Part shown: piece after piece, positions 15,496 to 17,259 of the stretch
Layout: each line of letters starts with the position of its first letter
Position numbering within the stretch: the first letter of the stretch is position 1
NCBI GenBank assembly: GCA_025839675.1
Contig: CP104013.1
Span: forward strand, 360,001-392,000
From: Candidatus Lokiarchaeum ossiferum
GTDB lineage: Archaea; Asgardarchaeota; Lokiarchaeia; Sigyniarchaeales; Promethearchaeaceae
DNA length: 32,000 bases
Reading direction: 5' to 3'
The notes under the pieces: generated by a model
Told to the model about the DNA's origin: nothing
The model's input: the letters and a program-made list of their open reading frames with translations, nothing else
Database searches by the model: none
Made by a program: the position numbers and the translations under genes

Positions 15496-17259
15496 TTAAT
15501 TCCGTATGAATAAAAAAAGACCCACCAAAGATAAACCTACGCCTCCAATTAATAATACACGGCTAATTTTTTGATAATTATCATACTGTAGTTCGATTTC
15601 ATTTGGTCCTGTGTCAAAAGTATAACCACTAAACGACATTGTTGAAAAAATAGATAGCCATAAGACCAAAATAATATTCCAAAGCGGAAAAATAAAAGAA
15701 CCATGGAAAATCCCACTGAATAGACTAATAATGATGATATTTATGATTCCAAAAAAGAAGCCTTTGAGAATAAAATTCCGAGTAAATGTAGATAATGGAT
15801 AACCGAAGGTAATTATAGCATTTATTATCAGTACATAAAGTAAAAATTCTCCCAAAAACCACCATGCACGTATGAAAGGAAGAAGACCCATTAGAATAGC
15901 AAAAAGAATTAACCGAGAAAGGAAGATTTTCCGATAGAGAAACATGGTATGGGTAATACCGGCTCGAAATCGATGCTTCAATGAAAAATGCGCTCGTTTC
16001 ATTTTTTCTGGTTTTTTTTTTGGCCCAACTAATTTCAAGTAGTCCTCAGTATCTTTAGCCCAAACAGGACCATAAACAACAGTAAATGGAAATTTAGAAT
16101 TCTTTTTTGGAAGTTCAGGGATAGCAACGCCGCCTGCTGAAAGCTGAGGCAAAATCAATTTCCGACTATCAGTTACTTGAGAAATGTTTGTAGCTTCAAC
16201 TGCTTCAATAATTTGTTGATTTCCAAAATCATTCCCTCGAGCAGCACACCACACATTAATTCCTCTTGAATCCACGCAAAGCACCCAAGCATCAGTATGC
16301 TTGATTTTTTGCATCAATTTTATGTAAGTATAATCATAATTTGCAGTAACTAAAATAGGAGAAGTTTTATTTGGACTTCCAGACTTATATATTCCTGGTT
16401 CAATAGGTACATGATCAACTTGACCAGTTAAGAGACAACGCATAGATCTTAGCCACGCTTCTATCCCTTTAAATGATTTTTGGGGTGGTGTGTAGTATCC
16501 CGGTTCGATTTGATCTTTCTTCTGTACTTTTTGCAAATGAAGTAATTGTATTGCTCCGTTTTTCCATGAAATATGGTTCTTTAAGGTAAATCCAATTGGT
16601 TTCAGATATTTTGTAAAATTTTTTAATGGATTTGTTGTTGTTTTTGTTCGTTTCATTTTTTTCTTAAAATACCATCGTTCAATATTAAATTTAACCCTTG
16701 CAAGTCTTTTTGGAACAAATTCAGCCGCAAGGAACATCTCTCCATCCTTATGAAGTTTTTTCCAAGCATTTCGAAGAAAAATTTGTTGCTCTAAAGGGCG
16801 TAATTCCGATAACATAAATGTGCTTACAATTTTTGTATATTTTTCCTCTGTAGACACCTTTTTGATAGGGGTATTGGCAGTCGAATTTTTAGTTAAAGTA
16901 ATTGAGAGAGGAGATTTAAGGATAAAAGTTGGTTGACTATCAAGTAACGCGCTTTTTTCTAAAGTTAAGGCATTTCCTTGAAAGAATTGTAATTGTAGGT
17001 TCTTTTGATCATTCAATTTTTGAGCGGTTTTGATCATCTTAGGGTTGATATCTAAACCCGTTACTTCACATCCTTGACTTGCCATCCGCTTTGCAAGAAT
17101 TCCGGGACCACATCCTATTTCTAAAATTCTATCGCTCTCATGAATATTTTCAACAATCCTATCTTGAATTAGAATATTTACTCCTTTAGTAAGTGAAGTG
17201 AATTTTGCATGATACGTTTCAGGCTCATTTTCCAGCTTTTTCATGTACACGACTGCCAT
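15496..17259 (-). CDS. fusion protein: class-I SAM-dependent methyltransferase + HgcA-like (CFeSP-type, Cys-on) corrinoid-binding domain + 5-TM domain
   Basis: Residues 1-245 form a Rossmann MTase (motif I 'ILEIGCGPGILA', 'VTGLDINPKM', 'DGEMFLAAEF'). Residues 255-435 read 'PGIYKSGSPNKTSPILVTANYDYTYIKL...DAWVLCVDSRGINVWCAARGNDFG...RKLILPQLSAGGVAIPEL'. That is collinear with the HgcA corrinoid domain and its cap-helix motif N(V/I)WCA(A/G)GK. 'NVWCAARG' lies at nt 16234-16257 and includes Cys338. Residues 436-587 form about five hydrophobic helices. Confidence 0.8.
   Translation of the reverse strand: MAVVYMKKLENEPETYHAKFTSLTKGVNILIQDRIVENIHESDRILEIGCGPGILAKRMASQGCEVTGLDINPKMIKTAQKLNDQKNLQLQFFQGNALTLEKSALLDSQPTFILKSPLSITLTKNSTANTPIKKVSTEEKYTKIVSTFMLSELRPLEQQIFLRNAWKKLHKDGEMFLAAEFVPKRLARVKFNIERWYFKKKMKRTKTTTNPLKNFTKYLKPIGFTLKNHISWKNGAIQLLHLQKVQKKDQIEPGYYTPPQKSFKGIEAWLRSMRCLLTGQVDHVPIEPGIYKSGSPNKTSPILVTANYDYTYIKLMQKIKHTDAWVLCVDSRGINVWCAARGNDFGNQQIIEAVEATNISQVTDSRKLILPQLSAGGVAIPELPKKNSKFPFTVVYGPVWAKDTEDYLKLVGPKKKPEKMKRAHFSLKHRFRAGITHTMFLYRKIFLSRLILFAILMGLLPFIRAWWFLGEFLLYVLIINAIITFGYPLSTFTRNFILKGFFFGIINIIIISLFSGIFHGSFIFPLWNIILVLWLSIFSTMSFSGYTFDTGPNEIELQYDNYQKISRVLLIGGVGLSLVGLFLFIRN

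Follow-up and report, generated by a model that had tools for sequence, protein, structure and literature searches.

The origin of the methyl group carried by HgcA, the corrinoid protein of the mercury methylase HgcAB, has been a question for thirty years, and in 2024 S-adenosylmethionine (SAM) was established as the donor for one purified enzyme. In purified canonical HgcAB, Co(I) takes its methyl group from SAM and not from methyl-tetrahydrofolate, which yields Me-Cob(III) ligated by a Cys thiolate, two electrons come from HgcB, and the methyl group passes to Hg(SR)2 as a radical or carbanion; no SAM-binding site was identified in that work and fusion proteins were not discussed (Zheng et al. 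2024, PMC11588087). Canonical hgcAB is controlled by ArsR, is induced by arsenic and S-adenosylhomocysteine (SAH), and is sometimes co-localised with ars genes. A second kind of protein, HgcAB-like (the ‘fused HgcAB’ of Podar 2015, for example in Pyrococcus furiosus), carries its ferredoxin in the same chain and is catalogued in NCBIfam (NF043039) together with a partner, CpaM (NF043040), a hypothetical equivalog described as a ‘corrinoid protein-associated methyltransferase’; no paper describing this kind was found in our literature search, the likely source (Haft & Gwadz 2023) lying outside its reach. Here we describe a gene in a 32,000-nucleotide stretch of the Candidatus Lokiarchaeum ossiferum genome (contig CP104013.1, positions 360,001 to 392,000; hereafter the window) that joins a CpaM-type SAM methyltransferase (MTase), an HgcA-like corrinoid domain and a five-helix transmembrane (TM) domain in one 587-aa protein, next to a gene for an HgcB-like ferredoxin. 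The two products together probably form a membrane-bound, SAM- and corrinoid-dependent methyltransferase, in which the fused domain would load the cobalt and a soft metal or metalloid would be methylated.

Architecture and conservation of the fusion

The gene is a single open reading frame (ORF) with an ATG start (Table 1). An earlier note, made from the letters of this DNA alone, had its coordinates right, and the strand has now been corrected to minus, the plus-strand frame over the same interval being full of stops. The three-part anatomy described in that note agrees with the ORF call, with family matches and with hydropathy: Pfam Methyltransf_25 occupies aa 45-101 (E = 8.9e-14) and CdhD (PF03599) aa 283-375 (E = 4.1e-11; 42.7 bits against a cut-off of 24.8, which identifies the domain at superfamily level only); the NCBIfam profiles HgcAB_like (E = 3.7e-51), HgcA (E = 6.8e-48) and CpaM (E = 3.6e-40) all match, the first two beginning at aa 284; and five hydrophobic segments follow (aa 445-463, 468-490, 496-514, 517-544 and 567-585), with G545 of the TM domain invariant across the HgcA superfamily. 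The smaller landmarks were also found in place, namely motif I (GCGPG, aa 49-53, nt 17101-17115), the GLD triplet (aa 68-70), and three peptides collinear with HgcA (SPILVTANYDYTY, aa 300-312; DAWVLCVDSRGINVWCAARGNDFG, aa 323-346; LILPQLSAGGVA, aa 368-379). As the note had said, the MTase part has Cys only in motif I and in QGCEV (C50 and C64); C275 in the linker, C328 and C338 come after it. The insert of about 30 aa that had been seen in the MTase is confined to the L. ossiferum lineage (P0001, P0002 and P0004 in our alignment; other members are 545-560 aa long) and is modelled as disordered (pLDDT <50 at aa 105-137). On anatomy and family placement the note’s interpretation was thus largely right, and taken as a whole it is partly supported. 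The database names of these proteins are misleading: the product is 100% identical to UYP44054.1 / WP_457918358.1 of Ca. L. ossiferum, the former listed as ‘Ubiquinone biosynthesis O-methyltransferase, mitochondrial’, and a P. syntrophicum homologue of the same fusion family (QEE17993.1) is misnamed ‘Acetyl-CoA decarbonylase/synthase complex subunit gamma’.

Table 1 Features of the fusion gene and its immediate neighbours, in window coordinates.
Feature	Position	Strand	Basis
CpaM-type SAM methyltransferase + HgcA-like corrinoid domain + 5-TM domain	15496..17259	minus	ORF, Pfam, NCBIfam, AF2
Class-I SAM methyltransferase domain, CpaM homologue (aa 1-262)	16474..17259	minus	NF043040 profile, Foldseek
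Lineage-specific MTase insert of ~33 aa, between beta-3 and beta-4 (aa 105-139)	16843..16947	minus	alignment, pLDDT
Linker helix + HgcA-type corrinoid-binding domain (aa 263-426)	15982..16473	minus	PF03599, HgcA/HgcAB_like profiles
Cap helix NVWCAARGNDFG, putative axial Cys338	16222..16257	minus	family motif count, colinearity with canonical HgcA
Five-helix transmembrane domain (aa 427-587), conserved FSTMSFSGYT motif	15499..15981	minus	hydropathy, AF2 helices
HgcB-like 2x[4Fe-4S] ferredoxin, 97 aa, 16 bp downstream of fusion	15186..15479	minus	NF040864
CDF-family divalent-cation efflux transporter, 15 bp downstream of ferredoxin	13764..15170	minus	PF01545, ZT_dimer, TIGR01297 (190 bits)
ACR3 arsenite/antimonite efflux permease, 45 bp upstream of fusion	17305..18345	minus	TIGR00832 (286.4 bits against 282.8)
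ArsR/SmtB metalloregulator, divergent, CVC motif in DNA-binding helix region	18435..18878	plus	NF033788 (73 against 55 bits)

The fusion recurs in many lineages, with hundreds of full-length homologues in Asgard archaea, Thorarchaeota, Chloroflexota and further bacteria. Homologues of the full protein fall into 776 clusters at E <1e-5, and all of the best 120 (120/120) are full-length fusions of 545-587 aa from independent assemblies; these come from metagenome-assembled genomes (MAGs) labelled Loki-, Hod-, Hermod-, Heimdall- and Odin- and from Promethearchaeum syntrophicum MK-D1 (QEE17993.2). A single ORF encodes the fusion at 45 genome loci. Scanning GTDB species genomes, we found it in Promethearchaeota, Hermodarchaeota and Hodarchaeota at 47-51% identity, in Thorarchaeota at about 30% identity, and in the bacterial groups Chloroflexota/Anaerolineae, Zixibacteria and Poribacteria. 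When the MTase domain (aa 1-265) was used by itself as the query to look for close stand-alone relatives, only 29 fragments of the same fusion family came back. The earlier note had raised the possibility that an assembly error or a frameshift had united two genes. Nothing was found in favour of such an artefact, and conservation rules it out: the source genome is closed (6.03 Mb), the 120 best homologues are full length in many independent assemblies and phyla, the 45 loci hold the fusion as one ORF, and the linker is conserved and confidently modelled, which together leave this explanation a negligible probability.

An AlphaFold2 (AF2) model built from the 120-sequence alignment (mean pLDDT 83.7, pTM 0.83) has as its top Foldseek match in the PDB 9a0b_A (E = 3.8e-13, TM-score 0.59, 29% identity), which is the integrative HgcAB model of Cooper et al. 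2020; the next matches are generic small-molecule class-I MTases. The middle domain therefore models as HgcA-type and not as a non-corrinoid fold, an outcome that the earlier note had allowed for, and a corrinoid fold followed by five TM helices is the architecture of HgcA. Sequence searches found no experimentally solved HgcA structure, 9a0b was the sole HgcA-type entry in the fold search, and the nearest experimentally solved structures by sequence were large subunits of the corrinoid iron-sulphur protein (CFeSP; 4c1n and 2h9a, E = 3.7e-6). In the alignment the fusion keeps the superfamily core that it has in common with canonical HgcA (G289, Y291, G294, P296, N307, N335-V-W-C338, P371-Q-L373, A375, G397, P398, R430 and G545), and C338, the equivalent of Cys93 of ND132 in its N-V-W-C context, is invariant in all alignments. 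Along with the Foldseek match, these retained residues uphold the assignment of the protein to the HgcA family made in the earlier note.

The MTase domain aligns with the CpaM profile from position 2 to position 215 of 216 and has an intact SAM-binding core, as expected of a CpaM homologue: G49, G51, G53 and D70 are invariant across a divergent fused set at 26-68% identity and across homologues at 26-88% identity, an N-terminal lid (M-x-x-L-E-x-x-P-x-x-Y) is conserved, and C50 in motif I is the only conserved Cys. The earlier note was right that the cysteines of ArsM are missing, although its step from there to methylation of cobalt is only suggestive. An ArsM-type direct metalloid methylase was considered as the identity of the domain and rejected, the ArsM-type models matching the SAM core only (24-27 bits against cut-offs of 510-575) and the As(III)-binding cysteines not being conserved. 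More generally, the two halves of the protein could be independent, or could work in the reverse sense, with the class-I domain methylating a metalloid or a thiol directly in the manner of ArsM, TehB or TPMT and the corrinoid domain playing a separate role. Weak generic similarity to the TehB, TPMT and ArsM models (E = 1e-5 to 1e-6) and the ars-type genes of the operon speak for this. ArsM/AS3MT too is a SAM MTase of class I from ArsR-controlled ars operons; it needs neither corrinoid nor ferredoxin. We consider direct methylation highly improbable because those matches cover the SAM-binding core only, at 17-27 bits (cut-offs are >300 for ArsM and the NCBIfam TehB model, and about 20-26 for Pfam TehB and TPMT), CpaM is the better match by >30 orders of magnitude, no Cys is conserved beyond motif I, and the obligate linkage to a corrinoid protein in three architectures (described below) favours one reaction path. 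The high pTM of the model also suggests a fixed arrangement of the domains.

Placement among HgcA, HgcAB-like proteins and CpaM

Judged by the NCBIfam cut-offs for CpaM (180 bits), HgcAB_like (285 bits) and HgcA (NF040863, 275 bits), the fusion stays below all three: it scores 163.5 bits with HgcA and 174.8 bits with HgcAB_like, the latter over profile positions 14-263 of 350 only, and its MTase domain scores 137.7 bits with CpaM, or 151.1 bits without the insert. All tested Loki-type members behave in the same way (CpaM 135-151, or 135-148 for those other than the window protein, HgcAB_like 166-177 and HgcA 163-181 bits). Divergent fused relatives exceed the CpaM cut-off (P0132, 211; P0185, 192; P0198, 265.8 bits), and one of these, the triple fusion P0198, also passes that of HgcAB_like (381 bits). 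The fusion in the window carries no C-terminal 2x[4Fe-4S] ferredoxin domain: TM5 is the last element of its ORF, and a gene of its own encodes the ferredoxin. CFeSP of the Wood-Ljungdahl pathway was rejected as an identity, the large-subunit model NF003195 giving 57.3 bits over aa 284-376 only, against a cut-off of 306. The CFeSP large subunit (CdhE/AcsC, PF03599) has a homologous corrinoid-binding fold but, unlike the fusion, lacks an axial Cys ligand, a membrane domain and a SAM domain; its methyl group comes from methyl-H4folate, transferred by a TIM-barrel MeTr, and goes on to Ni in ACS.

Colinear with the canonical NVWCAAGKGTFG, the cap helix NVWCAARGNDFG departs from it by four substitutions (GKGT to RGND) with no insertion. 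N-V-W-C-A-A is intact (N335-A340, nt 16257-16240), as the earlier note had it, whereas its description of a GK replaced by a longer RGN does not stand. The exact NVWCAARGNDFG occurs in 78 of the 120 family members and NVWC[AG]ARG in nearly all. The strict motif N[VI]WC[AS][AGS]GK is not matched, the protein reading NVWCAARG, with RG in place of GK in about all 120 members, and none of six strict cap-helix motifs fits. Together with the HgcA profile score, this confirms that the protein lies outside the strict signature of mercury methylators, as had been noted. One MTase-fused bacterial relative (L025:8001-9590, plus strand) has the cap helix NVWCSAGKGNFS with the strict motif NVWCSAGK, and a strict Hg-MATE motif filter would call this CpaM-fused protein a true HgcA.

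Four groups are separated at bootstrap 100 in a neighbour-joining (NJ) tree of the corrinoid and TM domains: Loki-type (AARG), Thor-type (AARG-x-HF), Chloroflexota-type (AAGGGYFT) and a small set of bacterial proteins beside canonical HgcA. Proteins with a fused MTase are dispersed between the ferredoxin-fused clade and canonical HgcA. Because the deep nodes are weak (60% or below), we make no claim of a sister clade. Comparison of the canonical, CpaM-less HgcA proteins with the CpaM-associated forms (L045-L080 and P0135-P0250 against the latter) revealed a set of near-invariant charged residues (R, R, K, D, R, K97, E and E) that is found in the canonical proteins only: a pair of Arg in the N-terminal helix, K, D and R following the ANY motif, Lys97 and two Glu. 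The corresponding residues of the window protein are L276, V281, D309, I313, M316, G342, Q349 and H437, and the canonical charges are absent from the CpaM-associated forms. From the alignment, these residues may be candidates for the SAM site of canonical HgcA, or may equally reflect clade-specific conservation.

Like canonical HgcA and HgcB (NF040863/NF040864; Parks 2013; Zheng 2024), the Loki-type system has an N-V-W-C corrinoid domain with a Cys ligand, a five-helix membrane domain, an adjacent 2x[4Fe-4S] ferredoxin with a GxGC Cys and a C-terminal Cys pair, and frequent ArsR-type regulation; SAM as methyl source, shown for canonical HgcAB, is implied here by the SAM domain. It differs in its extra N-terminal class-I MTase, in AARG(N/D) as opposed to A(A/G)GK, in its scores below the cut-offs, in lacking the near-invariant charged residues, and in its ACR3 and CDF exporter neighbours. 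With the HgcAB-like and CpaM pair it shares the co-encoding of three modules, a non-GK cap helix and an MTase that aligns end to end with CpaM, but the point of fusion differs: the window has MTase and corrinoid domain in one chain and a separate ferredoxin, whereas HgcAB-like proteins are fused to the ferredoxin with a separate MTase, or all three are fused. In its scores (174.8 against 285 and 137.7 against 180 bits) and in its own signature, NVWCAARG, the Loki-type clade also stands apart. The Loki-type fusion is thus a distinct architecture and clade within the catalogued CpaM/HgcAB-like kind. The novelty claimed in the earlier note was therefore overstated, since NCBIfam already names both CpaM and its HgcAB-like partner, and SAM as donor to the HgcA corrinoid has been published.

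A further reading is that the protein is a functional mercury methylase, with Hg(II) as a physiological or efficient substrate and the Asgard carriers as genuine producers of methylmercury. The HgcA fold, the N-V-W-C-A-A core with Cys338, the five TM helices and a partner ferredoxin bearing both the GxGC Cys and the terminal pair of Cys are all consistent with this, the truncated motif by which some surveys call hgcA, N(V/I)WCA(A/G), is present, and the bacterial relative L025 even has the strict motif. We consider it unlikely, however, because the HgcA profile score is far below its cut-off (163.5 against 275 bits), all six strict cap-helix motifs are missed, Lys97 and several other near-invariant canonical charged residues are absent, the neighbours are arsenite and cation exporters and not mer genes, and P. 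furiosus, the sole tested organism with a related HgcAB-like protein, did not methylate mercury.

Ferredoxin partner, fusion permutations and gene neighbourhood

The 97-aa partner of the fusion has two CxxCxxCxxxCP motifs followed by GCGC and a C-terminal SCCDC, and thus the two cluster motifs, internal Cys and C-terminal Cys pair of an hgcB product next to its hgcA. Its score with the HgcB profile (55.1 bits, E = 5.2e-15, against a cut-off of 99) makes it HgcB-like rather than an HgcB equivalog, although it retains equivalents of the HgcB cysteines required for mercury methylation, that is, the GVGC-type Cys and the C-terminal pair. A homologue lies directly downstream in 42 of the 42 fusion loci that have downstream DNA, and its tail (GCGCLW(D/N)...CCG in Loki-type and GCGC(I/V)WN...SCCG in Thor-type loci) parallels the GVGCA...CC of canonical HgcB. 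Chloroflexota-type partner ferredoxins (L027, L032, L034, L037 and L042) have a degenerate first cluster motif (C-x-G-x-W-x-C-Y-x-V-C-P) and no Cys tail.

The same modules occur in other arrangements. When 80 metagenomic loci with ferredoxin-fused HgcAB-like proteins were scanned with a hidden Markov model (HMM) of the fusion’s MTase domain, a stand-alone CpaM (~220 aa, E = 1e-45 to 1e-60) was found directly upstream in 56, mostly with gaps of -4 to +7 bp, and 14 had CpaM within a triple-fusion ORF of ~590 aa; of the rest, nine had no upstream DNA and one was an ambiguity of ORF calling. CpaM is thus adjacent upstream or fused in 70 of the 71 loci with upstream DNA, while the same HMM gave no CpaM-grade match in 35 canonical hgcAB loci (0/35). 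These two linkages, CpaM in 70/71 and the ferredoxin in 42/42 loci, indicate that in the non-canonical branches MTase, corrinoid/TM and ferredoxin modules always accompany each other and belong to one unit that appears in three fusion permutations, and such permutations are classic Rosetta-stone evidence, drawn from gene arrangement, for a single functional unit.

On the minus strand the genes are ordered acr3, fusion, hgcB-like and CDF exporter (intervals of 45, 16 and 15 bp), with arsR divergent 89 bp upstream of acr3. The earlier note’s picture of the locus was incomplete in leaving out both the HgcB-like gene and this ArsR/ACR3 context. Given the divergent arsR beside this string, expression of the fusion gene is probably one element of a response to metal(loid) stress. 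The 89 bp between arsR and acr3 were searched for a palindromic ArsR operator, and only low-complexity AT-rich repeats were found. The CDF gene is probably the last of the same transcription unit, judging from the 15-bp spacing and shared strand only, and it is not conserved next to the fusion in related loci; its 468-aa product matches ZT_dimer in three stretches and its C-terminal domain appears duplicated.

Beyond the window, ACR3 is found within 8 kb upstream in seven other Loki-type loci, an ArsR-family gene is near the fusion in about half of the Loki-type loci, and ArsR is directly upstream on the same strand in five of six Thor-type loci; this ArsR/ACR3 linkage distinguishes the Loki-type loci from the 80 HgcAB-like loci, where it was not found. 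In five other Loki-type loci, all without ArsR (L003:2049-2513, plus strand, L006, L010, L015 and L018), there is instead a MarR gene, oriented like the fusion and ~340 bp upstream of it, and its product, with ECCNNSCQ in a Cys-rich N-terminus and CC near the C-terminus, is a possible alternative metal sensor. No conserved methyl-donor gene of the MT1/MT2 type was found in the 45 neighbourhoods. Eight Loki-type loci (L002:10065-10454, plus strand, and seven others) encode, ~400 bp downstream of the fusion, a 129-aa protein with a Cys-rich N-terminus (SPCCTPNSSCC) and an internal CAC, followed by a recurrent 107-aa protein. Both are absent from the window and neither matches a Pfam or NCBIfam family; like the other recurrent neighbours (MFS transporter, cupin, gelsolin-like, FMN reductase and AlkZ) they gave no functional lead. 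A canonical hgcA in a Peptococcaceae MAG (L076:4603-6972, plus strand) belongs to a different clade and stands in the order arsR-acr3-hgcA, which matches that of arsR, acr3 and the fusion in the window.

Other genes of the window include a pirin (bicupin; 18986-19846, plus strand) 107 bp after arsR and on the same strand, which is not seen beside the fusion elsewhere, a weak match in L067 aside, and an 881-aa ORF (11039-13684, minus strand) that immediately follows the CDF gene in the same orientation and, when read by eye, resembles a hybrid sensor histidine kinase with a C-terminal receiver domain. Further away are a redox/oxidative-stress gene cluster (7348-11032), with a flavodiiron-type protein (ODP metallo-beta-lactamase and flavodoxin), a ferredoxin-thioredoxin reductase catalytic subunit, a glutaredoxin and a pyridine-nucleotide-disulphide oxidoreductase with a rubredoxin-reductase C-domain, and an acyl-CoA dehydrogenase with a C-terminal rubredoxin-like domain, an unusual fusion (4986-6353, minus strand; RUBY_RBDX, aa 420-449).

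Proposed reaction and its significance

The architecture, family relationships, conservation and gene linkage of the fusion are as described above, and from them we infer SAM binding, cobalt loading by the fused domain, a direction of methyl flow and a type of substrate. In the proposed cycle, the 2x[4Fe-4S] ferredoxin would reduce the corrinoid on the HgcA-like domain to Co(I), and the CpaM-type domain would bind SAM and present its methyl group to Co(I), giving SAH and methyl-Co(III) with the Cys338 thiolate as ligand. The methyl group would then pass, in carbanion or radical form, to an electrophilic, thiol-bound soft metal(loid), which the Cys-rich tail of the ferredoxin (GCGC...SCCDC) may hand over, and two ferredoxin electrons would restart the cycle, so that the ferredoxin would act as a per-turnover reductant. 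Because the corrinoid inverts the polarity of the SAM methyl group, substrates that SAM cannot methylate directly would become methylatable. Since canonical HgcAB uses SAM, the best reading is that the fused domain passes the methyl group from SAM to Co(I), that the ferredoxin re-reduces the corrinoid, and that the target is a thiophilic metal(loid). We favour cobalt loading by the MTase domain on the grounds of SAM use by canonical HgcAB and of the three fusion permutations, which make the idea well motivated and much stronger than the evidence available to the earlier note could; three observations fit it, namely invariant SAM residues, no conserved ArsM-type Cys and no recurrent MT1/MT2-type donor gene. 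The ArsR/ACR3/CDF surroundings suggest a part in metal(loid) stress and make As/Sb or other soft metals attractive candidates. As substrate we favour As(III)/Sb(III) or another thiophilic metal over Hg(II).

SAM donates CH3+ to Co(I), forming methylcobalamin, in the reactivation of MetH and in class B radical-SAM enzymes (TsrM and Fom3) as well, although the MetH activation domain and the radical-SAM barrel are other SAM folds, whereas the fusion would use a Rossmann-type class-I domain; we know of no precedent for methylation of Co(I) by such a domain. This likeness raises the alternative that the MTase serves only an occasional reductive reactivation, a MetH-like repair of cob(II)alamin, and that an unlinked methyltransferase provides the catalytic methyl group. 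SAM-dependent reactivation is established for MetH, and a ferredoxin partner would suit a reactivation system too. We nevertheless judge it quite improbable, since SAM is the catalytic donor in canonical HgcAB, no MT1-type gene recurs in the 45 neighbourhoods, and the ferredoxin is linked or fused in every permutation, which would fit a stoichiometric demand for electrons.

Several points weigh against SAM-to-cobalt loading followed by metal(loid) methylation. The ACR3/ArsR link holds for about half of the Loki-type loci only and for none of the 80 HgcAB-like loci, and regulators of the ArsR/SmtB family sense many metals. The Chloroflexota-type ferredoxins have no Cys tail, so subfamilies may differ in substrate. 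Canonical HgcAB uses SAM without CpaM, so that a dedicated SAM domain is not obviously required and another role is possible. To our knowledge, no class-I Rossmann MTase takes a cobalt nucleophile as its substrate, and we know of no biochemistry for any CpaM or CpaM-associated HgcA-like protein. The negative result for mercury in P. furiosus counts here too.

In Asgard archaea, Chloroflexota and other groups, a SAM-binding domain is either fused to an HgcA-like protein or obligately paired with it at the gene level, and this constitutes independent comparative support for SAM as the methyl donor of HgcA. The fused SAM domain is a concrete module for studying how SAM is presented to cobalt, and the comparison with canonical HgcA, which has no CpaM, singles out residues there, Lys97 among them, as candidates for its SAM site. 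The family also matters for gene surveys, as those that rely on the truncated motif N(V/I)WCA(A/G) or on moderate HMM scores will count these paralogues as mercury methylators, for example in Asgardarchaeota and Chloroflexota. Truncated-motif surveys do report both groups as putative methylators and seek MetH or MttB as methyl donors. The Loki-type fusion family matches the motif and brings a SAM domain of its own. In Lin et al. (2023), Asgard sequences fell within the fused-HgcAB subtree after the first 327 alignment columns had been trimmed, a step that may have removed the MTase domain.

The fusion gene is present in L. ossiferum and in P. syntrophicum MK-D1, the two Asgard archaea in culture, which makes the question experimentally tractable. 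A bolder proposal, which we regard as doubtful, is that the Asgard pair carries out an ArsR-controlled and ArsM-independent methylation of As(III), Sb(III) or another thiophilic metal(loid) through a Cys-ligated corrinoid on which the polarity of SAM’s methyl group is inverted. If this were true, the fused Rossmann domain would be the first class-I methyltransferase acting on the cobalt of a protein-bound corrinoid, the absence of mercury methylation by HgcAB-like proteins tested alone would be explained, and the methylation of metal(loid)s rather than of mercury would be the ancestral job of the HgcA superfamily.

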